Source: Dehalococcoidia bacterium
GTDB lineage: Bacteria > Chloroflexota > Dehalococcoidia > Bin125
DNA: 64,000 nucleotides
Assembly (NCBI GenBank): GCA_965242485.1
Contig: CBDESM010000003.1
Location: 639,337-703,336 of the forward strand
Direction: 5' to 3'
The stretch's first letter is position 1; every line of letters starts with the position of its first letter. The translations under genes were made by a program, and so were the position numbers. This document shows, in pieces, positions 18,887 through 40,325 of the stretch. The notes beneath the pieces are model-generated. The model did no database searches. It worked only from the letters and a program-made list of their open reading frames with translations, and was not told the DNA's origin.

Positions 18887-21800
18887 CCACTGCAACCACC
18901 ATTCCCGAGGTTGACGCGATGCCTGCTGGCGACGCGCTGGCGGCGTTTCATCCGTTGGTGCGGGATTGGTTCCGTTCGCGGTTTCGGACGGTGACTGATG
19001 CGCAGGGGGCGGGGTGGCCGGCGATCCGCTCGCGGGGGGATTGCCTGCTGGCAGCGCCGACGGGGTCGGGGAAAACGCTGGCGGCGTTTCTTTCGGGGAT
19101 CAATGGCCTGCTCGAGGAAGACGCCGACGGGGGGCTGCCGGATGAGCTGCGGATTCTCTACGTCTCGCCGTTGAAGGCGCTCTCGAACGACATCGAGCGG
19201 AACTTGCGGGAGCCGTTGGCGGAGCTGCGGGAGCTGGCGGAGGAGCGCGGGGAAGCGCCGCACCGCATCCGCGCGGCGCTGCGCACGGGGGACACGCCCG
19301 CGGCCGAGCGGCAGCGGATCGTCAAGCGGCCGCCGCACATCCTGATCACGACGCCGGAGTCGCTCTACCTGCTGCTGACGGCGGAGAAGTCGCGGGAGAT
19401 GCTGAAGACGGTCGAAACGGTGATCGTGGACGAGATCCACGCGGTGGTGCGCGACAAGCGCGGCTCGCACCTCGCGCTTTCGCTGGCGCGGCTGGACGAT
19501 CTGATCGAGACGGCCCGCGGCGAGCGGCCCGTGCGGATCGGGCTCTCGGCGACGCAGAAGCCGATGGACGAGATCGCCCGCTTCCTTACGGGCCTCGATG
19601 CGGAGCGCCGGCCGCTGCCCTGCAAGATCCTCGACCTCGGCCACCAGCGGCAGATCGAGCTGTGGCTGGAAACCACCGACGTGCCGCTCGAGGCGGTCGT
19701 TTCGCACGACCAGTGGGACGCGATCTACGGGCGCTTGGCCGAGCTGGCGGCGCAGCACCGGACGACGATCATCTTCGTCAACACGCGCGCCTTGGCCGAG
19801 CGGCTGGCGCACCGGATCAGCGAGCGGATCGGCAAGGAGCACGTGGCGGCGCACCACGGCTCGCTGGCCAAAGAGCGCCGGCACGCGATGGAGCAGCGGC
19901 TCAAGTCGGGCGATCTGCGCGCCGTCGTCGCCACCGCTTCGCTCGAACTCGGGATCGACGTCGGCTCGGTCGATCTCGTCTGCCAGGTCGGCTCGCCGCG
20001 CCGGATCGCGACCTTCCTCCAGCGCGTCGGGCGCTCCGGCCACGCGCTCGGGCGCGTGCCCAACGGCGCGCTCTTCCCGACCACGCTGGATGAACTGGTC
20101 GAGTGCGCCGCGATGGTCCGCGCCGTGCGCGACGGGCGGCTCGACCGCATCCGCCAGCCCGGCGCGCCGATCGAGGTGCTGGCGCAGCAGATCGTGGCCG
20201 AGATCGCGGCCCGTTCCGCCGATGATCCTTGGACCGAAGACGCGCTCTACGCGCGCTTCCGCCGCGCCACGCCCTATGCCGAGCTCGAGCGCGGCCGCTT
20301 CGACGAGACGGTCGAGATGCTGGCCGAAGGCGTGGGCGAGGGCGGCGGGCGCTCGCGGCCGCTGATCCACCGCGACCGCATCCACGGCCTGCTGCGGCCG
20401 CGGCGTTCCGCGCGCATCACCGCGCTGCTCAACGGCGGCGTGATCCCCGAAACCGGCGATTTCCGCGTGGTCAAGGAGCCGGAAGGCTCATTCGTGGGCA
20501 CGGTCAACGAGGATTTCGCGATCGAATCGCAGGCCGGCGACATCTTCCTGCTCGGCAGCACTTCCTGGCGGATCAAGCGGGTCGAGTCGAAGGGCGTCGT
20601 CCGCGTGATCGACGCGCAGGGAGCGCCGCCGACGATCCCGTTCTGGCTCGGCGAAGCGCCGGGGCGCAGTCCCGAGCTTTCCGAATCCGTCGGCCGCCTG
20701 CGCCGCGACGTGATCGCGCGGATCGACGACGCGGAGACCGCCTCGCGCGACCTCCAGCGCGAGTGCGGCATGTCGGCCTCGGCCGCGGCCCAGCTGATCG
20801 AGTACCTCGGCGCGGCGCACGACGCGCTCGGCATCATCCCGTCGGACCGGGACGTGCTGTTCGAGCGCTTCTTCGACGAGGCGGGCGGGCAGCAGCTGGT
20901 CGTCCACGCGCCCTTCGGCTCCGGCGTCAACCGCGCCTGGGGGCTGGCGCTGCGCAAGCGCTTCTGCGTGCGCTTCGACTTCGAGCTGCAGGCTGCGGCC
21001 AACGAGGAGGGGATCATCCTCTCGCTGGGGCCGTCGCAGTCGTTCCCGCTCGAGGAGGCGTTCGAGTACCTCAAGGCGGGCAACGCGGAACAGTCGCTGC
21101 GGCAGGCGGTGCTCTATGCGCCGTTTTGGAACACGCGCTGGCGCTGGGCGGCGACGCGGGCGCTGGCCGTGCCGCGGCGGCGCGGCGGCAGGGAAGTGCC
21201 GCCCAACTTGCAGCGGATGATCGCGGACGACCTGCTGGCTTCGGTCTTTCCGGCCCAAGTCGGCTGCCAGGAGAACCTCAGCGGGCCGCTGGAAGTGCCC
21301 GACCATCCGCTGATCGCGCAGACGATGGACGACTGCCTGCACGAGGCGGTCGACACCGACGGGCTGGTCGAGGTGCTGAAGCGGGTCGAGGCGGGCGAGA
21401 TCACGCTGCACGCGCGGGACACGGTGACGCCGTCGCCGCTGGCGCAGAGCATCATCAACGTCAATCCGTTCGGCTTCCTCGACGACGCGCCGCTGGAGGA
21501 GCGGCGGGCGCGCGCGGTGATGACCCGGCGCGGGCTGCCCGACAGCCAGCGCAAGCTGGCCCAGCTCGATCCCGACGCGATCGAGCGCGTGCGGGCCGAG
21601 GCCGCGCCGCCCGTGCGCGACACCGAGGAGCTGCATGATCTGCTCGCGAGCCAGGTGCTCGTAGCGGAACACGAGCTGCTCGAGCACCGCGAGCTGCTCG
21701 ACGCGCTGATCGCCGACGGCCGCGCGGCCCGCGCCCTCGCGGCGGACGGCCGCATCGCCTTCGCCACGGAAATGCTGCCGGCCGTCGAACTGCTGCTGCC

Positions 21801-23241
21801 CGGCGCGGAGATCGAGCCGCCGATCAGCCTGCCCGAAGGCGCTGCCGTACGCATCGCCGAGCGCGACGAGGCACGCCTGCGGCTGGTGCGCGGGCACTGC
21901 GAAATCTCCGGGCCGGTCTCGCCCGAGCAGCTGGCCGCGCGCTGCGGACTCGGCGCGGACGATCTCGAGTACGGGCTGCGGGCGCTGGAGGCGACGGGCG
22001 ACTTGATGCGCGGGCGCTACACGCCGGACTCGGCGGAGCCGGGCGCGCCGGAGGAGTACGTCGACCGGCGGCTGCTGGCGCGCATCCACCGCTACACGAT
22101 CGGGCGGCTGCGACGGGAGATCGAGCCGGTTTCGGCAGCCGACTACCTGCGCTTCCTGCTGCGCTGGCAGCATTTGGCGCCGGGCTCGCGGCTGCAGGGG
22201 AAGGCCGGGGTGCGCGCGGCGATCGCGCGGCTGGAGGGCTTCGAAGCGCCGGCGCGGGCTTGGGAGCACGAGCTGCTGGCGGCGCGGGTCGAGGACTACC
22301 GCGCGGCCTGGCTGGACGAATTGTGCCTCGCGGGCGAGGTCGCTTGGGCGCGGCTGACCCCGCGTCCGCCCAAGAACGGGCGCGGCGGCGTGCCGACCAA
22401 GGCGACGCCGATCACGCTGGCGCTGCGGCGCGACTTCCAAACGCTGCTGGCCGCGGTGCGGCGCGCACCGCCACCCAAGCCGGCGCGGGGACGCTCGGCT
22501 TCGCGCGACGAGCCCGACGCGATGGATGAGATCGCCGCATCCGGCGGCGCGGCGGCCGCGATTCTCGCCGCTCTGCGGGAGCGGGGCGCGCTCTTCTTCG
22601 ATGAGATCGTCGAGCAGTCGGGACGCCGCATCGCCACCGACGTTGAGAACGGGCTGCGCGAGCTGGTCGCGGCGGGTCTGGCGCGGGCGGACGGGTTCCA
22701 AGGGCTGCGGCAGCTGATCCGCCCGGCCTCGGCGGCGCGGCGCAGGCGGCGGCCGCGCTACGGGGGCGGCGGCGCGTTCATCGGCGAGGGCCCGGCCGGG
22801 CGCTGGTCGGCGCTGCCCGCGGAGATCGCGCCGGCGGAGGATTACATCGAGGCCGACGAGCACGCGGAGCGGATCGCGAACATCCTGCTCCAGCGCTACG
22901 GCGTCCTCAGCCGCGAGCTGCTCACCCGCGAGTCGCTGGCGCTGCCCTGGCGCGAAATCCTCCGCGCCCTGCGCCGAATGGAAGCCAGCGGCGAAATCCG
23001 CGGCGGCCGCTTCATCCAAGGCCTGATCGGCGAGCAGTTCGCCCTCCCCGAAGCCATCGACCAAATGCGCAGCCTCCGCCGAGCAAAAAAAGAAGACGAG
23101 CGAGTAGAGGTCCCCGCAGCAGACCCAGCCAACCTGGTAGGCGTCCTAGTCCCCGGCAAGAAGGTCCCCGCAAGGGCAGGCGCGAAGATCACATTCAAAA
23201 ACGGCGTGGCCAACGAGGATGCTCCGGGGGCGCTAGAATGA
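18883..23241 (+). CDS. lhr: Lhr family ATP-dependent helicase, full length
   Basis: helicase motifs plus DEAD_assoc and C-terminal winged-helix region (EIRGGRF..G..GEQFA, AADPANL). Confidence 0.92.
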   Translation: MTTATTIPEVDAMPAGDALAAFHPLVRDWFRSRFRTVTDAQGAGWPAIRSRGDCLLAAPTGSGKTLAAFLSGINGLLEEDADGGLPDELRILYVSPLKALSNDIERNLREPLAELRELAEERGEAPHRIRAALRTGDTPAAERQRIVKRPPHILITTPESLYLLLTAEKSREMLKTVETVIVDEIHAVVRDKRGSHLALSLARLDDLIETARGERPVRIGLSATQKPMDEIARFLTGLDAERRPLPCKILDLGHQRQIELWLETTDVPLEAVVSHDQWDAIYGRLAELAAQHRTTIIFVNTRALAERLAHRISERIGKEHVAAHHGSLAKERRHAMEQRLKSGDLRAVVATASLELGIDVGSVDLVCQVGSPRRIATFLQRVGRSGHALGRVPNGALFPTTLDELVECAAMVRAVRDGRLDRIRQPGAPIEVLAQQIVAEIAARSADDPWTEDALYARFRRATPYAELERGRFDETVEMLAEGVGEGGGRSRPLIHRDRIHGLLRPRRSARITALLNGGVIPETGDFRVVKEPEGSFVGTVNEDFAIESQAGDIFLLGSTSWRIKRVESKGVVRVIDAQGAPPTIPFWLGEAPGRSPELSESVGRLRRDVIARIDDAETASRDLQRECGMSASAAAQLIEYLGAAHDALGIIPSDRDVLFERFFDEAGGQQLVVHAPFGSGVNRAWGLALRKRFCVRFDFELQAAANEEGIILSLGPSQSFPLEEAFEYLKAGNAEQSLRQAVLYAPFWNTRWRWAATRALAVPRRRGGREVPPNLQRMIADDLLASVFPAQVGCQENLSGPLEVPDHPLIAQTMDDCLHEAVDTDGLVEVLKRVEAGEITLHARDTVTPSPLAQSIINVNPFGFLDDAPLEERRARAVMTRRGLPDSQRKLAQLDPDAIERVRAEAAPPVRDTEELHDLLASQVLVAEHELLEHRELLDALIADGRAARALAADGRIAFATEMLPAVELLLPGAEIEPPISLPEGAAVRIAERDEARLRLVRGHCEISGPVSPEQLAARCGLGADDLEYGLRALEATGDLMRGRYTPDSAEPGAPEEYVDRRLLARIHRYTIGRLRREIEPVSAADYLRFLLRWQHLAPGSRLQGKAGVRAAIARLEGFEAPARAWEHELLAARVEDYRAAWLDELCLAGEVAWARLTPRPPKNGRGGVPTKATPITLALRRDFQTLLAAVRRAPPPKPARGRSASRDEPDAMDEIAASGGAAAAILAALRERGALFFDEIVEQSGRRIATDVENGLRELVAAGLARADGFQGLRQLIRPASAARRRRRPRYGGGGAFIGEGPAGRWSALPAEIAPAEDYIEADEHAERIANILLQRYGVLSRELLTRESLALPWREILRALRRMEASGEIRGGRFIQGLIGEQFALPEAIDQMRSLRRAKKEDERVEVPAADPANLVGVLVPGKKVPARAGAKITFKNGVANEDAPGALE

Positions 23242-23261
23242 TGGAGGACGGGAGGGAAGAC

Positions 23262-23426
23262 ATGGCCAAGGGCAGGAAGCGGATCACGGATGAGGAATTC
23301 GAGCGGATGAAGGAAATGTGGGCCAACGAGAAGAGCTACGCGGACATGACGTGGGAAGAGATCGAGGAGCACTTCCGCGAGCTGGGGCTGCCGCCGCCGG
23401 CACCGCTGCGCAAGGTGGCGTTCTAG
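23262..23426 (+). CDS. small protein S1 of the S/M module family
   Basis: 54 aa, GGAGG RBS, upstream TAGAAT; RITDEEFERMKEMWANEKSYADMTWEEIEEHFRELGLPPP. Confidence 0.8.
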   Translation: MAKGRKRITDEEFERMKEMWANEKSYADMTWEEIEEHFRELGLPPPAPLRKVAF

Positions 23427-23435
23427 CGCGACGCG

Positions 23436-23945
23436 TTAGTCGAACAGGGTCGACAACACCGTCGCCACGGCGAGTACTGCATCCGCGAACGCGCTGATCT
23501 GGGCGGCGCGGGCCCAGCGACGGGTGCTATCGACGACTCCTTCGTTGACGTCATAAGCGATGATCATCTGCTCGACGGCCCAATTCCGGGCGGCTTTCGA
23601 TCCGGCGTCTCGCTTGATCTGGCGCACTTGCCGCGCGGTCGGGCCGCGGTGGCCGAGATTCTTGCCGATGGCGACCGTCGTGCAGCCGACGCTGAAGAGG
23701 AAGACGAGCAGCGTCGCGACGGCTAGGGCGAGCTGATAGTCGCGCGGCTCCTGGGAGATCAGGACGAAGGCGATGGCGGAAAAGCCGACGATGACCGAGA
23801 TCAGCGCCGCGGTGACGGGCAGGCGCGCCAAGAGGCCTTGGAAGCGGGCCGTCTGATCTTCCTGCTGGTTTTCGGCGAAGCGGAGATCTAGATCGTCGTC
23901 CTCATCTTCGTACTCTTCCTCCGGGACATCGGCTTCGGGGGGCAT
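23436..23945 (-). CDS. 3-TM membrane protein M1 of the S/M module family
   Basis: 169 aa; acidic N-terminus, three hydrophobic helices; four paralogs in the window. Confidence 0.8.
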   Translation of the reverse strand: MPPEADVPEEEYEDEDDDLDLRFAENQQEDQTARFQGLLARLPVTAALISVIVGFSAIAFVLISQEPRDYQLALAVATLLVFLFSVGCTTVAIGKNLGHRGPTARQVRQIKRDAGSKAARNWAVEQMIIAYDVNEGVVDSTRRWARAAQISAFADAVLAVATVLSTLFD

Positions 23946-24008
23946 TCGGGGACTCTAAACCGGGCGGAGGGCGACGGGGCTAGAATGGAGATGGACGGGA
24001 GGGCGCAT

Positions 24009-24179
24009 ATGGCAGAGAAGCGGATCGGGCGGATCACGGATGAGGAGTTCGAGCGGATCAAGGAGGAGTGGGCGAAGCCGCGCAAGAGCTACGCGGACAT
24101 GACCTGGGAAGAGATCGAGGAGCACTTCCGCGAGCTGGGGCTGCCGCCGCCGGCACCGCTGCGCAAGGTGGCGCTCTAG
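24009..24179 (+). CDS. small protein S2 (orphan)
   Basis: paralog of S1 with RBS and TAGAAT. Confidence 0.8.
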   Translation: MAEKRIGRITDEEFERIKEEWAKPRKSYADMTWEEIEEHFRELGLPPPAPLRKVAL

Positions 24180-24249
24180 GGCAGCGCGCCGGTTCGGTGT
24201 CGCCGGGGCTGCTCCGGCAGCGCTAGAATGATGGGACGGGAGGGAAGGC

Positions 24250-24417
24250 ATGGCTAAGCGCAGGAGGCGGATCACGGACGAGGAGTTCGATCGGATGAAG
24301 GAGGAGTGGGCGAAGCCGCGCAAGAGCTACGCGGAGATGACGTGGGAAGAGATCGAGGAGCACTTCCGCGAGCTGGGGCTGCCGCCGCCGGAGCCGCCGC
24401 GGAAGGTCTACTTTTAG
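24250..24417 (+). CDS. small protein S3 (not in ORF track)
   Basis: read manually: MAKRRRRITDEEFDRMKEEWAKPRKSYAEMTWEEIEEHFRELGLPPPEPPRKVYF. Confidence 0.8.
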   Translation: MAKRRRRITDEEFDRMKEEWAKPRKSYAEMTWEEIEEHFRELGLPPPEPPRKVYF

Positions 24418-24426
24418 ACCTTCCGG

Positions 24427-24936
24427 CTAGGCGAACAGCACCGACATCACCGTCGCCACCGCGAGCATTGCGTCGACGAGCGCGCTGATCTGCGCCGCCC
24501 GGGCCCAGCGCCTGGTGCTGGCAATCGCCAGTTCGTTGATCTCAAAGTCAATGTCCATCTGCTTGATGACCCAACTGCGGGCGACGCTGCGCCCGTCGCT
24601 CCTTTCGAGATCCAGGACCCGCATCGGCGATGGGCCGCTTTGCCGCAGGTTTCCTTGGAGGGCGACAGTGGTGCAGCTCACGCTGATGAGGAAGACGATC
24701 AGCGTGGCCGCCCCCAAGGCCAGCTGGTGGGGGGCGGGATCCTGAGTCAGCAGAGCGAAGGCGATCGCTGAAAATCCGACGATGACCGAGATCAACGCCG
24801 CGGTGACGGGCAGGCGGGCGAGCAGGCTTTGGAAGCGCGCTGATTGATCATCCTGCCGGCGCTCCGACATGCGGAGGGCCAGCTCGCCGTCGGCATCGTC
24901 CTGCTCTTCCTCCGGGACATCGGCGTCTGGGGGCAT
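24427..24936 (-). CDS. 3-TM membrane protein M2
   Basis: 169 aa paralog of M1. Confidence 0.8.
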   Translation of the reverse strand: MPPDADVPEEEQDDADGELALRMSERRQDDQSARFQSLLARLPVTAALISVIVGFSAIAFALLTQDPAPHQLALGAATLIVFLISVSCTTVALQGNLRQSGPSPMRVLDLERSDGRSVARSWVIKQMDIDFEINELAIASTRRWARAAQISALVDAMLAVATVMSVLFA

Positions 24937-24989
24937 TCGGGGACTTTAGACCCGACGGGGCTAGAATGGAGATGGACGTGAGGGAAAAC

Positions 24990-25154
24990 ATGGCTAAGCG
25001 CAGAAAGCGGATCACGGACGAGGAATTCGAGCGGATGAAGGAAATGTGGGCGAACGAGAAGAGCTACGCGGACATGACGTGGGAGGAGATCGAGGAGCAC
25101 TTCCGCGAGCTGGGGCTGCCGCCGCCGGAGCCGCTGGAGAAGGTGGCGTTCTAG
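24990..25154 (+). CDS. small protein S4 (orphan)
   Basis: near-identical to S1 (MKEMWANEKSY). Confidence 0.8.
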   Translation: MAKRRKRITDEEFERMKEMWANEKSYADMTWEEIEEHFRELGLPPPEPLEKVAF

Positions 25155-25224
25155 CGCGATGCGCTAGTCGGTGCTGACGGGGGTGCTCCGGCGGCGCTAG
25201 AATGATGGGGACGGGAGGGAAGTC

Positions 25225-25386
25225 ATGGCTCGGAAGCGGATCACGGACGAGGAATTCGATCGGATGAAGGAGGAGTGGGCGAAGCCGCGCAAGAGCTACG
25301 CGGACATGACTTGGGAAGAGGTCGAGGAGCGGTTCCGCGAGCTGGGGCTGCCGCCGCCGGAGCCGCCCGAGAAGGTCGCGATCTAG
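25225..25386 (+). CDS. small protein S5 (not in ORF track)
   Basis: read manually: MARKRITDEEFDRMKEEWAKPRKSYADMTWEEVEERFRELGLPPPEPPEKVAI. Confidence 0.8.
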   Translation: MARKRITDEEFDRMKEEWAKPRKSYADMTWEEVEERFRELGLPPPEPPEKVAI

Positions 25387-25395
25387 GCCTTCCGG

Positions 25396-25905
25396 CTAGG
25401 TGAACAACACCGACATCACCGTCGCGACTGCGAGCACCGCATCGATGAAGGCGCTGATCTGCGCCGCCCGGGCCCAGCGACTGGTGCTGGCAATGATCGG
25501 CTTGTTGTTTTCATAGTCAAAGGTCATCTGCTCGATCACCCATGCGCGGGCGACGCTCGGGCCGGCGCTCCTCTCGAGGTTCAGCACTCGCAGCGGGGAT
25601 GGGCCGCGGTAGGTCAGATTCTTCTGCAAGGCGACGGTGGTGCAGCCCACGCTGATGAGGAAGACGATCAGCGTGGCTGCCCCCAAGGATATCTGGTGCG
25701 AGCCGGGATCCTGCGCCAGCAGGGCGAAGGCGATCGCTGAGAAACCGACGATGACGGAGATCAGGGCGGCGGTGATCGGCAGGCGCGCTAAGAGGCCTTG
25801 GAAACGCGCCGTCTGGTCGTCTTCGCGGCGTTCGGCCATGCGGAGGGCCAGCTCGCCGTCGGCGTCCTCCTGCTCTTCCTCCGGGGCGTCGGTTTCGGGG
25901 GGCAT
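25396..25905 (-). CDS. 3-TM membrane protein M3
   Basis: 169 aa paralog of M1/M2. Confidence 0.8.
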   Translation of the reverse strand: MPPETDAPEEEQEDADGELALRMAERREDDQTARFQGLLARLPITAALISVIVGFSAIAFALLAQDPGSHQISLGAATLIVFLISVGCTTVALQKNLTYRGPSPLRVLNLERSAGPSVARAWVIEQMTFDYENNKPIIASTSRWARAAQISAFIDAVLAVATVMSVLFT

Positions 25906-25929
25906 TCGGGGACTCTAGGATACGGGAAT

Positions 25930-25965
25930 CAGAGAGCCCCCGCCTTGCCGGGCGGGGGCTCTCTG
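25930..25965 (-). terminator. hairpin terminator downstream of the large surface-protein gene
   Basis: perfect 15-bp inverted repeat CAGAGAGCCCCCGCC-ttgccg-GGCGGGGGCTCTCTG. Confidence 0.75.
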
Positions 25966-25991
25966 GGTGGGCCGCTCTTGGCGACGCTGGG

Positions 25992-28900
25992 TTACTGGCT
26001 GGCGGCGAACCAGAGGTAGTCGCCTTCGATGATGGTGAAGTTGGCGGCGCTGCCGGGGAGCTCGGCGCCTTCGGGGCCGGTGGCGTATTGGATCCAGCGG
26101 CGGCCGTTGTGCAGCCAGAGCACGTCGGCGCCCTCGACCAGCGCCAGCGCTTGCGAGGCGCTGCCGGCCGTCTCGCCGCGCCAGCTCGAGATCACGCCCA
26201 GCGCCGGCATCCCGTCGGCGCTCTGGAACTCGATCGGGCCGCCGTAGGCCTCGTCGGGCAGCGCCGCCGTCCGCGTGTCCAGCACGACCCCGCCCGACGT
26301 CGCGTCCGTCGTCAGCGAGTCGCCGCTGCCCGAAACCGCGCTCACGCTCAGCACTCCGCGGCCCCGCGCGATCACGGTCAGGTTCGCCGACACCATCCCG
26401 TTCTTCGTCTTCGCCGAAGCGACCCCGTCGCTGTCCTCGTTCGGCTTCGAGATCAGCACCACGTCGCTCGTCGTCGCGACCACGCCGCGCGCGTCCAGCC
26501 GCACTTCCGTGCCGTCGGCCACGGGGATGCCGTTCGAGTCCAGCACCGCGATCGTGACCGGCCAGTTGCCGCCCACGCCGGGCAGCTCGCCCAGCTCGAC
26601 GTTGATCGTCTTCGCCTTGCCGGCCAGCGTGACCGGCACGTCGAGGTCCGCGATCCCGCTGCCGCTCACCTTGGCGATGTAGTCGCCCGAAGCCAGCGGC
26701 GCGGCGGCCGACTGGTTGATGTTGATCACCAGGCTGCAGTTGGTCCGCTCCGGGTTCGCGCAGTCGATCGTCGCCACGTAGGCGCTGCTGGGCACGGCCG
26801 CGCCGGCCGCGCTCTTCAGCTCCGCCTTCGCGTTGCGCGGCATCGCCGCCGCGTTGCCCGCCGCATCGCTCGCGCCGATCTTGATCGTCGCCGTGTCGCG
26901 GTCGTCCTTCGCGTCGCCCGAATCCGGCGTGTCGAACGAAAGCAGCCGCGGCTCATCGCCGCTCACCGCGATGCTCGACGCGGTCCCGCTGATCACCAGC
27001 TCCAGCGGCTCGGCCGAGTAGGTGCTCCCGTCGTTCCCGATCACCGTCGCCACGATCCGCGTGTTGCCGGCCGTAGTCGGCGCTTTGAACCTGAGCGGAA
27101 TCGCGCCGATCACGCCGGGGGTCGCGCCCGCGGCCACCCGCAGGCTGTCCGCCGCGGTGCCGCCGTCGGTCATGCTGGTGAAGGAGACCGTGCAGGTCGG
27201 CGCGAAGCTGCCGGGGCAGTAGTCGCCCCTGCCTTCTTCGTCTCCGCCGTCGATCTGGCCGCCGCCGATCACGCTGATCGTGATCGCCGAGAGCGCCGTG
27301 ATCTGCGAGGGCGCGTTCTCCGCGTTGCGAATCGAGAGCACCACGGCCTTGGCCTCGGGGTCGCCCACGCGGATCGTCCCGGTCGGCACGACCCCGCCGA
27401 CGGGCGCGCGGCTCAGCGTCACCGTCTCGATCTGCTTGACCGCGCCGACCCGCAGCCGCGCCTGGCCGAACGCCATCACGCCCTGGTACTGCATCGTGCC
27501 CGTCGGCAGCTCGTAGAACGCCGGCACGCTGCCCTCCGGCACCGAAGCGGTCGGGTCATCCGCCGTCAAGCGCCAGACCGGCACGTTGCCGGTCACCACG
27601 ATGTCATCGTCGCCCGCATCCGCGTCGACCCGCACCTTCGGCGCGCCGCCGTCCTCGTTGGTCATGTAGCAGCTGACCAGGCCCGCGTCGTCGGCCGAGC
27701 CGGTCGCGCCCCGGCGGTCGACGCAGTTGATGTGGTTGTAGCCCTCTTCGCTGAGCGACAGGCGCTTGCCGCCGTTCTCGTCCCAGACCGCGGGGCCGTT
27801 GAGCACCAGGTAGCCGTCGCCGAAGCCCTGCTCGCGCAGGTCGATCCCGCCGCTGCCCAGCGTCGCGTCGAGCCCCTCGTAGGCGGTCGCGTACCAGAAG
27901 CCGCTGACCGAGCCGTGGAAGCGCTGCGTCGCCTCGTCCTGCGCGTGGTAGCCCACCGCCACCTGCGCCACCTGCGACGCGCCCAGCCGCCCGTCCGCGT
28001 CGTCCGGCAGCCAAGCGATCACCCGCGCCGAGCCCTCGCCGTTCCCGCTCGGAGCCTTGGCCACGTACTCGGGAATCGGGTTGTTGACGAAGGTGCCGTC
28101 CTTGATCCGGCCGCTGAGCGTGATGTCTTCCGGGTTCTCGGTGTCATGCACGACCCGCAGGATCATGGGCGTCATGTGCATGAGATCCCACCCGTAGCCC
28201 GTCTCCAATGTGCGGCCGCGGAGCATGGCTTGCATCAACGTGCCCAGCCGGTCTTCCGGATCGGCGCCATCGGGATCGTTGAGGTGGCAGTCCGTCCCCT
28301 CGTCGGTCGTGCCGTCGTCGCTGCACTCCCAGTCCGTGTAGAGCAGACGCACCGTGCCCTTGCCCTTGACGTTCAGGGTGATCCTGTCAGCGTTCGACGC
28401 GCTGCCGCCGGTTTGGAAGTCGGAAAGGCGGACGGTGGTCATGTACTCGCCGTCGATGGCGCTCGCGGGGAGGCTGGTCTCCCGCATGAGGCCGATCCGC
28501 AGCGCCAAGTCGCCGCTGCTCCCGTAGGCGCCGATCCGGCCTTGCGGGCCCGCCTCATTCACATCGGGGGTGTCAGCATCGTTGTCCCGTCTCTTGCTGA
28601 AGGCATTGGCCGGGTTCGGCGATGCGAATTGGTACTGGCCGCTGGCGACTTCGGTTTCGCCCTTCATGTAGCGGACGTAGACGATGCCGTCGGTGGCCCA
28701 AGCGGAAGAGGGCGGGGTGCGGATCTCGCCGGCGAGGTAGTTGACGAACGGACCGACCGTCCCGTCGTAGTTGCCGCTGGTGTCGCCGAAGGATTTCTTG
28801 TTGTAGGTGCAGATGCCGAGTTGGTCGTTGCCGCTGCGCCAAGCGTCGACGAAGGGGCTCTCCACGCCGGCCCCGACGGGCGGACTCGAGACCGGGCAGA

Positions 28901-29912
28901 GATCGGGATGGAAGACGATGCCCGCGTTGTTCAGGCGATCGGAGCTCTTGATCTCGACTTCGACGGTGTCGAAATCGCTGTAGGGAACCTTGACCGGGTT
29001 GCCGTCGGCGTCGTTGCCATTGCTCAGGATCGAGCCCATGAGCAGGGCGCGCCCGAGTTCGGGGTTGTCGGTGCAATCGTCAACGGAGGTGTCCTCGCTG
29101 GTGCAGGGCGCGAGGCCGTCGTCAGTGTCCTTCATCCGGTAGACGCTGACCTCGCGGTAGTCGGGGCTGACGAAGCGGAGCGCGTGCTCCGTCCGCGTGC
29201 CTTCGCCGTTGGCCTTGGCGATGGCCGAGACGTAGAAGTTGTCGAGGTCGGGCGGGAGCACGAGCTTGAAGACGCCGCCATGGCCCGCCGTGTCGGCGTT
29301 CCCGGCACTGGCATGGTCGGGGTCACCGAGGAACCGTGCTTTGCCACCAGGACCGACTCCGTTGCCGGCGCCGCAAGGGAGGCCGAAGTTGCCCATGCCG
29401 CCTCCCCAGCGGTCGGGGCAGAGGAAGTCCACGAAATCGCCATCGTCGTCCTCCGCCTGGAGGCCGTATTCGTGCATAGCGCCGCCATAGCCGTCGCCGC
29501 CGGGGGGGATGCGGTGGTCGCCGCCACTGATGATGTCGGGGGTGCTCGCGTCGGGGTCGTCGTAGCGGAAGCCCACGACGATGAAGTCGATGCTGCCGGA
29601 GGATTGGTGGTAGGGCACGTTCAGGACCGAGGCGGCGGGGACGGCGCCCGCGGTCACTGCCGCGCTGGTGACCCAGACCTTGATGTAGATGTCATCGTCT
29701 TCGTCGTAGGCGAACCTGCCGTTGACGGCCTGGATGGGCGCGCCCGCGCCGGAGTTCGCGCCGGGGTCCCAGCGGACGATGTGCGGATACAGCGAGGGCG
29801 TCTGTGCGTCCGCGCGGGGGATGACGGCGAGGGCCGCGGCGGCGAGCAGCGCGGCCAACGCGGCGAGCAGGAACAAGCGGCGGTTCAGGAAGAGGGCAGA
29901 GACGGGCAGCAC
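25992..29912 (-). CDS. large secreted/surface (S-layer-like) protein, ~1306 aa
   Basis: GAGGAG RBS before GTG 29912; signal peptide RRLFLLAALAALLAAAALAVIPRADA-Q; Gly/Asp/Thr-rich; Ig-like C-terminal region; C-terminal W..NG..W..Y…G..LPGS..F.I..GD.LW motif. Confidence 0.75.
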   Translation of the reverse strand: MLPVSALFLNRRLFLLAALAALLAAAALAVIPRADAQTPSLYPHIVRWDPGANSGAGAPIQAVNGRFAYDEDDDIYIKVWVTSAAVTAGAVPAASVLNVPYHQSSGSIDFIVVGFRYDDPDASTPDIISGGDHRIPPGGDGYGGAMHEYGLQAEDDDGDFVDFLCPDRWGGGMGNFGLPCGAGNGVGPGGKARFLGDPDHASAGNADTAGHGGVFKLVLPPDLDNFYVSAIAKANGEGTRTEHALRFVSPDYREVSVYRMKDTDDGLAPCTSEDTSVDDCTDNPELGRALLMGSILSNGNDADGNPVKVPYSDFDTVEVEIKSSDRLNNAGIVFHPDLCPVSSPPVGAGVESPFVDAWRSGNDQLGICTYNKKSFGDTSGNYDGTVGPFVNYLAGEIRTPPSSAWATDGIVYVRYMKGETEVASGQYQFASPNPANAFSKRRDNDADTPDVNEAGPQGRIGAYGSSGDLALRIGLMRETSLPASAIDGEYMTTVRLSDFQTGGSASNADRITLNVKGKGTVRLLYTDWECSDDGTTDEGTDCHLNDPDGADPEDRLGTLMQAMLRGRTLETGYGWDLMHMTPMILRVVHDTENPEDITLSGRIKDGTFVNNPIPEYVAKAPSGNGEGSARVIAWLPDDADGRLGASQVAQVAVGYHAQDEATQRFHGSVSGFWYATAYEGLDATLGSGGIDLREQGFGDGYLVLNGPAVWDENGGKRLSLSEEGYNHINCVDRRGATGSADDAGLVSCYMTNEDGGAPKVRVDADAGDDDIVVTGNVPVWRLTADDPTASVPEGSVPAFYELPTGTMQYQGVMAFGQARLRVGAVKQIETVTLSRAPVGGVVPTGTIRVGDPEAKAVVLSIRNAENAPSQITALSAITISVIGGGQIDGGDEEGRGDYCPGSFAPTCTVSFTSMTDGGTAADSLRVAAGATPGVIGAIPLRFKAPTTAGNTRIVATVIGNDGSTYSAEPLELVISGTASSIAVSGDEPRLLSFDTPDSGDAKDDRDTATIKIGASDAAGNAAAMPRNAKAELKSAAGAAVPSSAYVATIDCANPERTNCSLVININQSAAAPLASGDYIAKVSGSGIADLDVPVTLAGKAKTINVELGELPGVGGNWPVTIAVLDSNGIPVADGTEVRLDARGVVATTSDVVLISKPNEDSDGVASAKTKNGMVSANLTVIARGRGVLSVSAVSGSGDSLTTDATSGGVVLDTRTAALPDEAYGGPIEFQSADGMPALGVISSWRGETAGSASQALALVEGADVLWLHNGRRWIQYATGPEGAELPGSAANFTIIEGDYLWFAASQ

Positions 29913-30118
29913 GGCGACTCCTCTACTCGCGCCGCCGCAAGCGCAGCCAGCGCATAGACACGCCCCCCACCATACAACACCCCCACCCCAAGCGCCCCCC
30001 GCCCCGCCAGATTTACACCCCCCTAACACACCGCCCTCCCTACCCCCCCGCCAAGATAGCCACCGCCGCAATCACCGCCGCCGCCCCGCCAAATGCGGGC
30101 TCCCGATCGCGGGGAGCG

Positions 30119-30451
30119 CTATTCGGCCTCGGCCTCGTCGCCCGGCGGCAGGGCCGCGCGGGCATCGACGGAGAGGATTTCGATGACGAGCTGGTTGAGG
30201 AAGCGGTAGACGATCACGAGCCGATCCCAGACCATGACGTGCTCGTAGCGGTGATAGGGCGGCATGTTGGAGGCATCGAAAACGGTGGGGTTGTCCGTCG
30301 TCGGGTCCTGCAGGAGCGCGTTGAGCGCTTCAACCCAGCTGAGGCGGTCCTGCGTGGCGAGGCGGTTGATGTCGGAGCCGGGAAGATCGGGATGCACGGC
30401 CTCCGAGTACTTGACGTCGTATCCGCTCGGGCCGGGCGGTTCGGCGGCCAC
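30119..30451 (-). CDS. putative RelE/ParE-like toxin of Panacea pair
   Basis: GTG overlaps the Panacea TAG; 110 aa with YDVKYS…L.QDP…LVIVYRF…VIEILSV layout. Confidence 0.55.
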   Translation of the reverse strand: MAAEPPGPSGYDVKYSEAVHPDLPGSDINRLATQDRLSWVEALNALLQDPTTDNPTVFDASNMPPYHRYEHVMVWDRLVIVYRFLNQLVIEILSVDARAALPPGDEAEAE

Positions 30452-31005
30452 TAGAAAGTGACGGGGCTGGTGGGCTGTCCGCGGCGGCGGGCGACGCGCT
30501 GCTGCAGTTCCACGTCGTTTTCGAGCATCGCGCGGACGGCATCCTTGTCGACGGGGGGCGGGATGGCGCGTTGGCCGAGCAGCTCTCCGTTGAAGAATTC
30601 GTAGATGGCGCGACGGGAGATTTCGCCGCCGCGCTCGTCGCGCCGCCAGACATCGTGCCAAGGCCGCTCCATGTGGGTCTGGTTGCGGAGGTTCCAAGAG
30701 GTCATCCAGCCCAAGCGGGCGTAGATCATCTCGAGGACTTCGATGCGCCACTGCTCGAGTTCGGGCTTTTCGCCCGTCGCGGGGATGGAGATGCGGCCGT
30801 GTTCCTTGTACTGGTGGTAGACGGCGGGGACGACGGGGCCGTGTTCCCAGGCTTCGATGCGGTCGTCGAAGATCGGCTTCTGCCAGAGCGCGAGCGAGTA
30901 GCCCTGCGCGTAGTAGCAGAGCTTCTGGAGCTTGAGGTGGTCGATCCGGTCGCCGGCATCGGCGGCCATGTGGACGATGCGTGCTGCGATGGCGGTCGCG
31001 TCCAT
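30451..31005 (-). CDS. Panacea domain (DUF4065, GepA/SocA-like) antitoxin
   Basis: LKLQKLCYYAQG, IEAWEHGPVVPAVY, LRNQTH.E.PW. Confidence 0.92.
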   Translation of the reverse strand: MDATAIAARIVHMAADAGDRIDHLKLQKLCYYAQGYSLALWQKPIFDDRIEAWEHGPVVPAVYHQYKEHGRISIPATGEKPELEQWRIEVLEMIYARLGWMTSWNLRNQTHMERPWHDVWRRDERGGEISRRAIYEFFNGELLGQRAIPPPVDKDAVRAMLENDVELQQRVARRRGQPTSPVTF

Positions 31006-31103
31006 GGCGGTCTCCCTACGGAATGCAGGAATCCAGTGTAGCGGGAGCGCGCCCGCCCGCCGGCCGACTCCGCAAGCGCTAAGATCAGCAGCAGGAGGCC
31101 GCC

Positions 31104-31331
31104 ATGCTGAACTGGCTCAAGAGCATAAAGAAGCTCTGGGAACTGGACCCGCCCCCCGAACGCTGGGACCTCTCCTCCCTCAGCGAAGAAGAAATCGCCC
31201 GCTACAAGGCCCTCCTAGCCGACCGCAAGTCCTACGCCCACATGACCTGGGACGAGTTCCGCGAGTACATCCGAGAGCAGGGCCTGCCGCCGCCGCCGCC
31301 GTTCGGAAAGCGCAGCCTGCTGACCTACTAG
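31104..31331 (+). CDS. small protein S6 (long subtype, orphan)
   Basis: 75 aa; GGAGG RBS; KSYAHMTWDEFREYIREQGLPPPP homologous to S1-S5. Confidence 0.8.
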   Translation: MLNWLKSIKKLWELDPPPERWDLSSLSEEEIARYKALLADRKSYAHMTWDEFREYIREQGLPPPPPFGKRSLLTY

Positions 31332-31400
31332 GACAAGATCGCCGCGATGATCGTGGCAAGGGCAGGCTCAGGGCGCTAAGATCGGCTGCAGGAGGCCGCG

Positions 31401-31631
31401 ATGCTGCTGAACTGGCTCAAGAGCGTGAAGAAGCTCTGGGAACTGGATCCCCCGCCGGAGCGCTGGGACCTCTCCTCCCTCAGCGACGAAGAGATCGCCC
31501 GCTACAAGGCGCTGCTGGCCGACTGGAAGGCCTACGAGCACATGGACTGGGACGAGTTCCGCGAGTACATCCGAGAACAGGGACTGCCGCCCCCGCCGCC
31601 GTTCGGAAAGCGCCCCCTGCTGACCTATTAG
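31401..31631 (+). CDS. small protein S7 (long subtype)
   Basis: tandem duplicate of S6; stop overlaps the M4 stop. Confidence 0.8.
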   Translation: MLLNWLKSVKKLWELDPPPERWDLSSLSDEEIARYKALLADWKAYEHMDWDEFREYIREQGLPPPPPFGKRPLLTY

Positions 31632-32113
31632 GACAAGATCGCCGCGATGATCGTGGCCGGGGCGATGACGGCGTTGGCGGCGGTGGCCGCGACGGAGACC
31701 CGGAGCCAGCGCTCCGCGCGGGCGATCCGGGGTTCGTTGGCGGCGTAGAGATTGAGCATCACGTCGGTTGCGAGGGCGATGGCGGCCGCTTCGCCGAACC
31801 GCCGCTCCACCGCGCGGATGGCATGCGGCCTCGCGTCGGGCGTCGAGAGGCTCCCGCTGAGCGCGGCGAACGAGCTGGTGATTCCAATGGCGAAGATGAC
31901 GAGGATGATGATGCTGAGCGCTTGGATCGCGGCGCCCGGCTCGCGCACCCAAGCCGCGAGGGCGAGGGCGAAGAGGCCGATGACGATGGAGTTGGCGCTG
32001 ATCGAGACGCCGATCCGGGCGCGAATCTCGCGGACGCGCTCATTCTGATGTTCAGTGAGCCAGAGGGTCGACTCATAGGAGAAGCGTCCGCCGTCTTGGT
32101 CGTCGTCAGGCAT
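31628..32113 (-). CDS. 3-TM membrane protein M4 (divergent)
   Basis: 161 aa; NSIVIGLFA, NEP…RW motifs shared with M5 and M1-3. Confidence 0.78.
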   Translation of the reverse strand: MPDDDQDGGRFSYESTLWLTEHQNERVREIRARIGVSISANSIVIGLFALALAAWVREPGAAIQALSIIILVIFAIGITSSFAALSGSLSTPDARPHAIRAVERRFGEAAAIALATDVMLNLYAANEPRIARAERWLRVSVAATAANAVIAPATIIAAILS

Positions 32114-32185
32114 CGCGGGCAGTGTAGAGGGCGGGCGGCTGGGAGGATTCAGATCGCCTAGAATGGGCGACGAGGGGGGTGCAAG

Positions 32186-32353
32186 ATGGCCCGGAAGGAA
32201 CGGCGGATCACGCCAGAGGAGTTCGACCGCCTGAAGGCGAAGTGGAGCAAGCCGAGGAAGAATTTCGCGGAGATGACGGACGAAGAGCTGGAGGAGTGCT
32301 ACCGCGAGCTGGGCCTGCCGCCGCCCGGCAAGCTGTTCGAAGTGCGCTGGTAG
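32186..32353 (+). CDS. small protein S8 (not in ORF track)
   Basis: read manually: MARKERRITPEEFDRLKAKWSKPRKNFAEMTDEELEECYRELGLPPPGKLFEVRW; upstream TAGAAT. Confidence 0.78.
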   Translation: MARKERRITPEEFDRLKAKWSKPRKNFAEMTDEELEECYRELGLPPPGKLFEVRW

Positions 32354-32366
32354 AAGGCGCGGGGGA

Positions 32367-32870
32367 TCAAGCGAATAGGACGACGAGGACCGTCGCCACG
32401 GCGAAGGCGGCGTCGGCGGCTGCGAAGAGCTGCGCGGCGCGGGACCAGCGCTCCATGGCCACGATCACCGGCTCGTTGATAGAGAAGGCGCGGCCCATTT
32501 CCCCGGCCGCCCATCTGCGCGCAAGCGCTTCGCCGGCGTCCCGTTCGATTTCGATCACCTCTTTCACCGTCGGACCGCGCTGCGAACGGGTCATTTGCAG
32601 GGCGGCCGTGGTGCAGCCGACGCTGGCCAGGAAGATGATCAGTGCGGTGGCGGCGAGGGCGAGTTCCGGCGGCGACGGGTCGCGTGCGAGGAGCGCGAAG
32701 GCGATGGCGAAGAGGCCGATGATGACGGAGTTGAGGGCGGCGGTGACGGCAAGGCGGGCATGGATGGCGCGGAAGCGGTCGGATTGGTCGTCAAGCTGCC
32801 ATTTGGCAAGATCGTAGGCGAGGCCGCCCCCGGGTTCTTCTTCGTCGTCCAACGGCTCAGGTTCCGGCAT
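32367..32870 (-). CDS. 3-TM membrane protein M5
   Basis: 167 aa; DDQS.RF..ARL.VTAAL, SVGCTT, RW.RAAQ motifs. Confidence 0.8.
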   Translation of the reverse strand: MPEPEPLDDEEEPGGGLAYDLAKWQLDDQSDRFRAIHARLAVTAALNSVIIGLFAIAFALLARDPSPPELALAATALIIFLASVGCTTAALQMTRSQRGPTVKEVIEIERDAGEALARRWAAGEMGRAFSINEPVIVAMERWSRAAQLFAAADAAFAVATVLVVLFA

Positions 32871-32907
32871 TCGCGTAGTCTAAGAGCAGTTGCGGCGCCG
32901 CCGGAGG

Positions 32908-33552
32908 TCAGCCGCCCGCGATGCGCCAGATGCGGGCGAAGTCGAGGATTAGGCCGGGCATCTCGGGATCGCAGGCGACTTCGTCGGGCCGGTGAAGGAC
33001 CTGCTGTTCCTCGCCGTCGCGGTAGATGTGGAAATTGTGGTTGACCGGATCGACGAGCAGCCCGAGCAGGACGCCATGAGTGGTCCAGCCGACCATCTTC
33101 TCCTGCTGCCCGCTGAGCGAATCGTTGCGCGAGCGGACCTCAATCACGAACTCCGGCGCGATCGGCCAGTAGGTCGGCCGGGGGCCCCGCATGGGCGGGA
33201 GCGTCGCGCGGCGCTGCGGGCTGATCCAGCTGACGTCCGGGATGCGCGCCTCCCAACCCGGCGGCCAGTAGCCGCCGTCCTTGCCGCGCGTGCCGATGTC
33301 GTACAGGGACACGGCCCAGTTGCCGGCTTGTCGGCTCAATTCAGAGGTGATGTAGGGGATTTCGTCCTCCGATGCGCCGCTGATGATGAGCTCCCCTCGA
33401 CAGGTCTCGACCCAGATGCCCTCGCAGCCCTCGCCGAGCCCGGCAAGGTAATCGTCCGTAATCGCGCAGTCCGGCCGCACCCGCACGGGGCGGTGCAGGG
33501 CGAGGACCGCATCAATAGCGTCCGAAACGGGGTCAGCAACGGCGGTGGTCAT
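32908..33552 (-). CDS. Uma2/DUF820 family putative restriction endonuclease
   Basis: PDVSW, APEFVIEVRS.ND, KM..W..GV.LG.LVDP. Confidence 0.88.
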   Translation of the reverse strand: MTTAVADPVSDAIDAVLALHRPVRVRPDCAITDDYLAGLGEGCEGIWVETCRGELIISGASEDEIPYITSELSRQAGNWAVSLYDIGTRGKDGGYWPPGWEARIPDVSWISPQRRATLPPMRGPRPTYWPIAPEFVIEVRSRNDSLSGQQEKMVGWTTHGVLLGLLVDPVNHNFHIYRDGEEQQVLHRPDEVACDPEMPGLILDFARIWRIAGG

Positions 33553-37875: not shown

Positions 37876-39291
37876 TCAGGCACCCTCGGTCGTCCAGTAG
37901 GCGTTCGGATCGTGGCGGCTCATGGCGACATGGCGGACCGCTTCGCGCTGTTCCAGGAGCGCGAGCGCCCGCAGGACGGTGGGCCGGGCCGAACCGGTCA
38001 GCTGCACCAGCTCCCCCGTCCGCAGCCGCCCGGCTTCATCGAGGTGCTCGACGATCTTGAGCGCCAGCGGCGGCAGCCCTTGCTCCTGCTTCCGCCCGCC
38101 CACCTGCGCCCGCAGGATCACCCGCACCGCGCCCTCCAGATAACGGATGTCCGGCGGCTCGCGCCCGCTCGACACCATCACCTCGTACATCCGCCGCAGC
38201 CCCTCGCCCCGCTCCTCCCCGTAGGACATCTCCGCCAGCACCCGCGCGATCCGCGGATTCCGCGCCATCCGCACGACGTCGCGCAGATCATTCTTCGGCC
38301 GCCCGGCCGCGAAGCTGCCTGGATTCGACACTTCGACGCGGTCGTCGAAGATCTCGAAGCGGATGTGATCGCCGAAATTCGAGTAGGCGCGGTGGACGAC
38401 CGCGTTGACCAGGGCCTCGCGCCAGACGTCCTCGGGAATGATCGGCGACCACTCGAATTTGCCGTCGCGGCCGAGCGCCCGCCGTTCCGGCATCACGTCG
38501 GCGATCTGCTTCGTCGCTTCGTCGAGCTGCCGCGGCAGCGTCCCCTCGAACCGCGCGTCCGAGTGCGTGTTCTGCTCCGCTCCGAAGCGGCGCTCCGTCC
38601 CGATGTAGTGGATCACCCGGACATGCGCCGCCGGATAGGCATGCTGCGGCGCCGCGCCGAACAGCAGCTGCGCCGCGACGAACTGCGAGCCACTCGGGTC
38701 GCAGAGGCTGCGGGCCTGCAGCATCCGTTCCGCGCCGCTGATCCCGAGCGCCTGCGCGAACTCCGAGCAGCGCTCCCGGTTGAGCGCCGTATCGCCGAAC
38801 CGGCCCGCCGGCGTCGCCTCGAACGCCACCTCCCCGCGCTCGTAGAGCAGCGACGTGCGCTCCGCGAAGGTCAGCAGCCGATCCACGTCCGCGACCCGCA
38901 GGTACATGTCGTCCGGCGTCCGCACGAGCGGCCGGTTTGATGGAGGCACCGAGATCACGCACAGGCGGTCCGGTTTGCCCGTATCCGTGATGCAGGGCAG
39001 CAATGCCGACTCGTAATGCATCCGCGGCATCGTCTGTTCGATCCCCGCCCGATCCCACCCGGGATGCGCTTCGGGGAACTCGTCAATGCCTTCGCAGCGG
39101 CCCCCGTGCAGCCCGATCGCGACGATCCCGCCCTCCGCATTGGCCATCGCGACCAGCGTCTTCGCCAACCCGCGCGAATCGATCCGCGCGCTCTTGCGGT
39201 CGAACCACTGGTCTTCAGGCTGCGACAGCAGCGTCGCCGTCAGCTCGGCCGGCGTCAGCATCCGCAATTGCTCGATCGGGGGAACCGGCAT
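37876..39291 (-). CDS. AlbA_2 (Schlafen-like) + HATPase_c_4 + C-terminal wHTH protein
   Basis: EDQWFDRKS, AMANAEGG..G, REALVNAVVHRAY, FDDRVEVSNPG, RNP.IA, GEG..RM. Confidence 0.88.
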   Translation of the reverse strand: MPVPPIEQLRMLTPAELTATLLSQPEDQWFDRKSARIDSRGLAKTLVAMANAEGGIVAIGLHGGRCEGIDEFPEAHPGWDRAGIEQTMPRMHYESALLPCITDTGKPDRLCVISVPPSNRPLVRTPDDMYLRVADVDRLLTFAERTSLLYERGEVAFEATPAGRFGDTALNRERCSEFAQALGISGAERMLQARSLCDPSGSQFVAAQLLFGAAPQHAYPAAHVRVIHYIGTERRFGAEQNTHSDARFEGTLPRQLDEATKQIADVMPERRALGRDGKFEWSPIIPEDVWREALVNAVVHRAYSNFGDHIRFEIFDDRVEVSNPGSFAAGRPKNDLRDVVRMARNPRIARVLAEMSYGEERGEGLRRMYEVMVSSGREPPDIRYLEGAVRVILRAQVGGRKQEQGLPPLALKIVEHLDEAGRLRTGELVQLTGSARPTVLRALALLEQREAVRHVAMSRHDPNAYWTTEGA

Positions 39292-39299
39292 CAGACTTC

Positions 39300-39340
39300 C
39301 ACTCTAGTCTAGTCTCACAATATGAGACTAGACTAGAGTG
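39300..39340. promoter_or_regulatory. long palindrome over the AlbA_2 gene promoter (candidate operator)
   Basis: perfect 18-bp arms CACTCTAGTCTAGTCTCA-caata-TGAGACTAGACTAGAGTG. Confidence 0.6.
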
Positions 39341-40099: not shown

Positions 40100-40325
40100 G
40101 TTTCGCCCGCCTTCGTGAAGAGATATGGGCTGCTGACGCTAACGCCCTGGACCCGGCTTTTCCAGCCGATCCGCTGACTTCAGCGCCTGCTTATGCCAAG
40201 TGGCGCGTCAGAGATGAAGACGAGATGCGTGACAGGGAAAGCAGCGCGATGGGCGGGTCGTCGCATCCAGCAGCGGAACAGCAGGGACGCGCTCGTACGT
40301 GGGAAAGTTCTAGCGCCGCGCTGGC

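Follow-up and report, generated by a model that had tools for sequence, protein, structure and literature searches.

A 64,000-nucleotide stretch of contig CBDESM010000003.1 from a Dehalococcoidia bacterium (assembly GCA_965242485.1, positions 639,337 to 703,336; hereafter the window) carries eight small genes on the plus strand, here called S, and five genes on the minus strand, here called M, which encode proteins of 161-169 amino acids (aa). In our listing of open reading frames (ORFs) these genes form two arrays, with the order S1><M1, S2, S3><M2, S4, S5><M3 (array 1, 23.2-25.9 kb) and S6, S7><M4, S8><M5 (array 2, 31.1-32.9 kb), where >< marks a convergent pair. The arrays had been proposed from the DNA alone to represent a new two-gene system, and the positions of the 13 genes and their order were as given in that original prediction.

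Array 1 begins with S1 (23262-23426, +, 54 aa; longest ORF from 23238), which is convergent with M1 (23436-23945, -, 169 aa), a PycTM-like protein with three hydrophobic segments. S2 (24009-24179, +, 56 aa; longest ORF from 23985) is divergent from M1, with 63 nt from start to start, and is the distal S gene of the group S2, S3><M2, in which S3 (24250-24417, +, 55 aa) is convergent with M2 (24427-24936, -, 169 aa). The same pattern is seen in S4, S5><M3: S4 (24990-25154, +, 54 aa; longest ORF from 24966) is the distal S gene and is divergent from M2 (53 nt start to start), and S5 (25225-25386, +, 53 aa) is convergent with M3 (25396-25905, -, 169 aa). In array 2, the distal gene S6 (31104-31331, +, 75 aa) is a long form with an N-terminal extension rich in W, L and K; it is followed by S7 (31401-31631, +, 76 aa), which is convergent with M4 (31628-32113, -, 161 aa), the most divergent M copy (24% identity to M1). 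S8 (32186-32353, +, 55 aa) is divergent from M4 (72 nt start to start) and convergent with M5 (32367-32870, -, 167 aa).

All five M genes lie stop to stop with an S gene, at distances of 9, 9, 9, -4 (the stop codons of S7 and M4 overlap by 4 nt) and 13 nt, and a scan for terminators between the S and M stops found no terminator-like hairpin at any of the five pairs, so that the tail-to-tail pairing without a hairpin was upheld. S2, S4 and S6 had been regarded as orphans. This did not hold, as each adjoins another S gene directly downstream; what is repeated is thus S,S><M in three cases and S><M in two. Array 1 consists of direct-repeat units of 991 and 969 nt. Their DNA identity is merely 70-93%, which indicates old duplications and not an assembly artefact; we also rejected an assembly artefact for the arrays as a whole because the copies are 61-93% identical at the DNA level.

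For close pairs of S genes, the ratio of nonsynonymous to synonymous substitution rates (dN/dS, Nei-Gojobori method) was 0.15-0.5, and for M1-M3 it was 0.24-0.35. Both genes are thus protein-coding and under purifying selection. Upstream of every S gene we read the sequence CTAGAAT or CTAAGAT approximately 20 nt before a Shine-Dalgarno sequence (GGGAGG or GGAGG), which is followed by ATG. At S1, a -10-like box (TAGAAT, 23234-23239) precedes a GGGAGGG Shine-Dalgarno sequence, favouring the short start. From the positions of these signals we place the true starts of S1, S2 and S4 at the codon of the shorter form, beginning MAK or MAE. In front of every M gene, a TA[GAC]A[GC]T box ends 6-7 nt before the ATG and no Shine-Dalgarno sequence was seen, suggesting that the M mRNA is leaderless and presumably weaker than that of S. 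Where an S gene follows an M gene, the promoters stand back to back, with 53-72 nt between the start codons. The dN/dS values, the upstream promoter and Shine-Dalgarno sequences, the existence of 56 homologues and the control rate given below led us to reject the possibility that S is a chance ORF of GC-rich DNA.

The alignment of the eight S proteins contains 15 invariant columns including G-L-P-P-P, as expected from the predicted motif with its LPPP sequence, and identity to S1 ranges from 39 to 89%. Hydropathy analysis found no hydrophobic segments, classing all eight as soluble. Searches with S against Pfam, PHROGs, PADLOC and NCBIfam returned only noise (SHOCT-like matches of E 0.02-0.2 over 11 residues), and S7 had no usable match in the ESM Atlas. 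Among 5.8 billion proteins, S has 56 relatives, and its profile is present in only 2 of 41 related genomes, which are those of its own genus. An AlphaFold2 model of S1 comprises two short helices and a disordered proline tail, at low confidence (predicted local distance difference test, pLDDT, 66). Across genera, the convergent partners of M share the motif [L/V/I/F/K]PP(P)G/x-x-x-hydrophobic-x-hydrophobic, with an alternating hydrophobic pattern; it lies 12-14 residues from the C-terminus or further inside longer proteins. The codons that encode it differ among loci, which indicates that selection acts at the protein level. The helical body of S is confined to its own genus and only the short linear motif is conserved across genera. 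The single metagenome match to the S alignment (L060) was discarded as spurious: it is out of frame and antisense to a 454-aa ORF, with no M gene nearby.

The five M proteins share 24-64% identity with M1 and each contains three hydrophobic segments (KD19 ≥ 1.6), in line with the three transmembrane (TM) helices predicted; the acidic N-terminus and the DQ..RF...ARL, RGP and RW.RAAQ motifs were likewise recovered in the M alignment. The AlphaFold2 model of M1 (pLDDT 94.3, predicted template modelling score 0.81) has helices at residues 10-63, 69-94, 104-114 and 116-167. Pfam assigned no family to more than 3 of 18 M-family members, and of 10 distant representatives eight had no match and two had sub-threshold matches. 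PF18967, the Pfam model of PycTM, the TM effector of the anti-phage Pycsar systems, was not reached above its gathering threshold (27.2 bits) by any of the five M proteins, the 18 members or the 10 representatives, and a six-frame search of the own genome yielded no PF18967 match. The absence of a PF18967 match implies that the homology is remote.

More sensitive comparisons pointed to the same family. A profile of 18 M sequences matched 1688 cluster representatives at E ≤1e-3 and 407 at E ≤1e-10 among 1.84 billion, and a word-indexed search found 54 close relatives, none of which carried names or Pfam domains. With hhalign, 142 M-family sequences aligned to 11 PF18967 proteins of the same phylum, all above Pfam's PycTM cut-off, with a probability of 95.8% (E 7.8e-9) over 155 columns, essentially end to end. 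Controls (two reversed and 10 shuffled in 20-column blocks) gave probabilities of 0.4-15.9% and a best E value of 1.6e-3, so the match is not an effect of composition. The PADLOC models PDLC02363 (PycTM) and PDLC00711 (the '2TM effector' of CBASS) matched 8 and 6 of the 18 members, with best E values of 2.3e-7 and 2.8e-7, respectively; the matches begin at the N-terminal helix and span TM1-TM2, and one covers the whole model. M5 itself has weak PADLOC PycTM matches (E 0.018 and 0.024). In the ESM Atlas, the clusters nearest to M1 (score 0.93) carry PF18967 in 33% and 11% of their members. NCBIfam SLATT_4 (NF033632) matched 2 of the 18 members, at best with 17.2 bits (E 0.0035), below its cut-off of 55 bits.

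Structure-based and PDB searches added no closer relative: Foldseek with the M1 model against the PDB gave 521 matches at E ≤10 (generic helical bundles), none of them at E ≤1e-3, and a PDB sequence search gave four matches at E 0.52-0.98, none meaningful. A holin was considered and rejected, as Holin-X (PF07332) matched 3 of the 18 members with 17.1 bits (E 0.0057) against a cut-off of 28.4, and there is no phage context. As judged by profile comparison, M is related to PycTM effectors remotely but over its full length, and falls beyond the limits of the Pfam family; it is credibly an effector-type membrane protein. The original prediction had recognized neither family. For S this remains the case, but M falls into a large PF18967-related family.

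Of 41 related genomes, 12 contain M homologues, and all 12 belong to the same taxonomic family (4 of 26 genera). In a sample of 401 genomes from the phylum the count is likewise 12, and this distribution suggests an accessory gene. We examined all 33 same-family M matches outside the window for a convergent ORF of at most 145 aa whose stop lies -60 to +120 nt from the M stop and which contains the motif [LVIFKH]PP[PR]?G (strict) or, in a looser form, also LPPP. Such an ORF faced 18 of the 33 homologues by the strict motif and 20 by either form. Two further homologues have the motif in convergent ORFs longer than 145 aa, and among 11 misses four show variant motifs by eye (YPLPRDE, GWPPPEKE, KLPPASKPE and GVPPMRLEV). 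The distance from stop to stop in other genera is mostly 6-35 nt. As a control, the criteria were applied to 1622 long ORFs of the own genome outside the two arrays, of which 9 were positive for the strict motif and 11 for the loose one (~0.7%), and none of 11 PF18967 loci of the same phylum had such a proline-motif ORF. The convergent pair of M and a small ORF is thus a conserved two-gene module that recurs in other genera far above background, which bears out the central claim of a two-gene system.

Frequent occurrence of M without S had been named in advance as the finding that would speak against such a system. Outside the family this is what we found, since none of the 11 M homologues that belong to other families of the phylum faces a convergent motif ORF; inside it, at least 7 of the 33 (L047, L050, L052, L055, L049, L011 and L058) lack a recognizable S-like ORF, against the 20 that have a motif ORF. 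A genome-contig scan with M5 gave no match, in a collection that may leave out near relatives, and a scan with the G007 protein matched its own record alone.

The window holds eight S to five M genes, and the imbalance recurs at other loci of the own genome. At C3:2.60 Mb, three S genes in tandem are opposed by a single M gene. A 5'-deleted M remnant, of which only profile positions 118-168 could be found in any frame, stands opposite an intact S gene (E 7e-24) at C3:0.55 Mb. A further locus, at C3:2.20 Mb, consists of an SDR gene, S and a convergent M, and is syntenic with a locus in other genera. S paralogues are also closer to each other than M paralogues (81-89% versus 62-64% identity). 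In other genera, the convergent partner of M can be a single ORF made of two or three tandem repeats (L048 930-1535, L056 1071-1502 and L059 938-1363); the repeats are ~60-80 aa long, each with ELPPGKLDVIYIGG(I/F)PP.W or a variant, and resemble fused S units. Extra or multivalent S is, on these sequences, a recurrent and independently arising feature. A protector role is in keeping with the excess of S, with the orphan S left next to a dead M and with the stronger conservation of S. The asymmetry from which a toxin and its antitoxin had been proposed is therefore strengthened by the locus with three S genes per M and by the S gene beside an M remnant, but M often stands without S and is probably not constitutively toxic.

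In co-folding, M1 with S1 scored 0.32 (runs 0.34, 0.09 and 0.32), and the best of three controls scored 0.00. The runs agreed in at least 92% of contacts and partner pLDDT was at least 64. Of 80 solved complexes, 58 pass the mark used for co-folds, as do 2 of 110 mismatched pairs; passes at a score of 0.60 or below comprise 7 of the 80 solved complexes and both passing mismatches. The models thus lend weak support to binding of S to M.

The neighbours of the arrays are Lhr, a 1359-aa protein with no Pfam match, SocA_Panacea, Uma2 and a glycerate kinase. A defence-like setting had been proposed for array 2, between a Panacea toxin-antitoxin (TA) pair and a Uma2 nuclease. The SocA_Panacea protein (30451-31005) and Uma2 (32908-33552) were confirmed next to array 2, whereas other copies of the module lie among CoA-transferase, thiolase and SDR genes. 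Of the Panacea pair, only the SocA_Panacea protein was recognized: the presumed toxin partner, a 110-aa ORF directly downstream of its gene (30119-30451, -), has no Pfam or PHROG match. No pyrimidine cyclase adjoins the M arrays. The genome has two PF00211 (class III cyclase) genes, and both, at C3:1.18 and 1.66 Mb, lie at a great distance from all M copies.

Array 1 is absent from the sister species. There, the site directly after Lhr is occupied by a gene for a 377-aa protein (G001, L061 2421-3554) with a type I restriction HSDR_N domain (E 3.5e-8), so the site downstream of Lhr is variable between species. In the window, Lhr-type helicase genes stand in tandem (16271-18886, +, and 18883-23241, +) with overlapping ends. 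The first encodes an 871-aa Lhr-core form and lies in a stretch of low GC content (52-58% versus ~69% elsewhere), and may have been acquired horizontally; the second encodes a 1452-aa full-length form with extra winged-helix domains. The 1359-aa ORF between the arrays (25992-30071, -), without a Pfam match at E ≤1e-3, has an N-terminal hydrophobic stretch and a long body rich in Gly, Asp and Thr, and M3 lies 86 nt downstream on the same strand. The product may be a secreted or surface protein. Elsewhere in the window, GC content is lower (0.59-0.65 versus 0.67-0.75 in the surroundings) at 5001-6000, 39001-41000 and 55001-57000, and GC skew switches at ~57000 from approximately -0.20 (54-57 kb) to +0.33 (57-58 kb) and stays positive to the window end, which could mark a change of coding strand or a replication landmark.

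Several known systems resemble the S/M pair in part. PycTM proteins are similar to M in size (~160-200 aa) and in their layout, with two TM helices after an N-terminal helix, then a helical stretch in the cytoplasm and a hydrophobic helix at the end, and the full-length profile-profile match and the PADLOC PycTM matches to relatives of M at ~1e-7 agree with this likeness. They differ in that M stays below the Pfam threshold and is paired with a convergent proline-motif ORF, seen at none of the 11 PF18967 loci, and in that no cyclase adjoins M; a Pycsar system has its effector, which responds to cCMP or cUMP, beside a pyrimidine (class III-type) cyclase, and the M arrays do not. Beside two genuine PF18967 genes of the same phylum we noted ORFs of ~320-330 aa (L033 2131-3099 and L035 116-1111) that resemble helix-turn-helix regulators and not cyclases; not every PycTM-family gene may belong to a Pycsar pair. 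The SLATT and CBASS '2TM' effectors are, like M, helical proteins, predicted to form pores or disrupt membranes, with two TM helices after an N-terminal helix. Unlike these, the M family reaches 17.2 bits against the SLATT_4 cut-off of 55, and no CD-NTase, SMODS or reverse-transcriptase partner adjoins M.

Among TA loci, type I examples with convergent, 3'-overlapping genes are found in Bacillus and Clostridioides. As at the S/M pairs, the gene for a membrane-targeted toxin there faces a convergent partner with no room for a terminator. S differs from a type I antitoxin in being a conserved protein (dN/dS 0.15-0.5) and not a non-coding RNA, and M, with ~165 aa and three hydrophobic helices, differs from a toxic peptide of <60 aa. 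Type II TA genes are co-transcribed as an operon, whereas S and M are convergent in all five pairs here and in other genera. In type II PANGU, a small nucleoid-associated protein is described as activating a TM effector encoded in the same bicistronic operon (10.64898/2026.04.06.716658). The two-gene logic of a small soluble protein and a membrane effector is shared, but the families are unrelated, S and M are convergent, and S is a proline-motif protein without a DNA-binding signature. A PADLOC search found no convergent proline-motif partner of a PycTM-like protein, and the parts of the literature returned by our searches contained no report of such a pairing. By its profile matches, M adds a new, so far unannotated branch to an effector superfamily that is already known.

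We tentatively favour, with a confidence somewhat short of even, a PycTM-like membrane effector that is restrained by the small S protein through its proline motif, with convergent transcription helping. In M, an N-terminal cytoplasmic helix would be followed by two TM helices, and these by a helical segment in the cytoplasm and a third hydrophobic helix. M would have lost, or never had, a nucleotide-cyclase partner and would instead be coupled to cytoplasmic S in this Dehalococcoidia-related family. S would bind the cytoplasmic part of M via the proline motif and hold it inactive, much like an antitoxin or immunity protein; if S ran short, for example through a block of translation or through proteolysis in stress or infection, M would be released and damage the membrane. 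A further layer of control, at the RNA level, would probably come from head-on transcription of S and M with no terminator between the stops, and from the pairing of an S gene that has a good -10 box and Shine-Dalgarno sequence with a presumably weaker, leaderless M mRNA.

A number of observations weigh against restraint of M by S. The co-fold support is weak and the S model is poor. The convergent order is unlike the operons of classical protein antitoxins. The Pfam PycTM model misses M; the homology is therefore distant, and M may have changed function. No match to an M homologue was found by tblastn among plasmids and phages, and viral contigs scanned with M1 yielded no relative. Outside the window, the copies have CoA-transferase, thiolase-like, SDR and MFS-like genes as neighbours and are not in defence islands. 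M-family genes, as counted above, often occur without S, which would be unexpected for a constitutively toxic protein. M is therefore probably gated rather than constitutively toxic, and this leaves room for S as an activating ligand or sensor.

Under that alternative, M would be closed by default, as are PycTM effectors gated by cyclic nucleotides, and would open when S or its proline motif binds after a trigger, e.g. a phage protein or a conformational change, with a peptide in place of the nucleotide second messenger. The M genes that lack S (all 11 from other families and at least 7 of the 33 from its own) suggest that M is harmless by default and needs activation, no cyclase stands beside any M, and small-protein sensors that activate membrane effectors do exist, type II PANGU being an example (10.64898/2026.04.06.716658); the weak co-fold support is neutral on the direction of regulation. 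We nevertheless consider an activating role unlikely, as an activator in excess (8 S to 5 M, or 3 S to 1 M) with the stronger expression signals would be risky, and an intact S gene beside a dead M is easier to understand if S protects against paralogous M. Somewhat less likely still, a PycTM-type effector may have exchanged its cyclic-nucleotide input for a peptide, with the LPPP(G) of S as a gating ligand. Given this polyproline stretch and the head-on transcription of S and M with no terminator between them, the amount of S would track the translation and transcription status of the cell. The module would then fire when infection or stress halts host protein synthesis, and would represent a protein-gated, translation-sensing branch of the Pycsar/CBASS effector superfamily.

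The pair may also have no part in conflict at all: M could be an accessory envelope or stress protein, S its regulator or assembly factor, and the arrays expansions of paralogues. The presumably ancestral syntenic copies lie among SDR, thiolase-like, CoA-transferase III and M20 peptidase genes, no M was found on the plasmids, phages and viral contigs searched, no PADLOC system model covers the pair, and the family is large and unannotated (1688 representatives), all of which would suit such a role. Yet the homology of M points to PycTM and CBASS-2TM effectors, even close relatives differ in whether they carry M (11 of 24 same-family genomes do), and the paralogues diverge fast and vary in copy number. 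Array 1 moreover occupies a site that is variable and holds the HSDR_N-domain gene in the sister species, and array 2 is flanked by the Panacea-domain gene and Uma2. On balance we think a role outside conflict improbable, to about the same degree as an activating S. Least likely, in our view, is regulation mainly at the RNA level in the manner of a type I TA locus, in which antisense transcription of S into the 3' end of M, and the reverse, would silence M by transcriptional interference or RNA duplex formation, the peptide being secondary. The short distances between stops (-4 to 13 nt in the window and, for the most part, 6-35 nt in other genera), the lack of a terminator-like hairpin between the genes and the promoter-like box of each gene are compatible with it. 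PPP and PPG are ribosome-stalling motifs, and in a variant of this explanation the polyproline would make translation of S dependent on EF-P, so that translation status sets antisense read-through. S is under purifying selection as a protein, however, and loci that use different codons for its motif still keep the amino acids. Several genera have the motif 36-60 or more residues before the stop, or have more than one copy of it in a single ORF, and M (161-169 aa) is far larger than type I toxins.

The significance of these findings is bounded by the narrow taxonomic range of S, and the roles proposed here are predictions from sequence and structural models. PycTM, SLATT and 2TM effectors are known to do the killing in immune systems that signal through nucleotides, and the large sister family to which M belongs appears without a cyclase. 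In one lineage of Chloroflexota, M and a tiny proline-motif protein are tightly linked, and their convergent layout is unusual. The pair illustrates that a module can have as its conserved partner a small ORF of 35-80 aa, a size that gene callers often miss. Should S restrain or gate M, the pair would represent a new mode of control for such membrane effectors and a new bacterial interaction between a small protein, or its short linear motif, and its target, and it would offer a handle on the many PycTM-like genes that stand alone.

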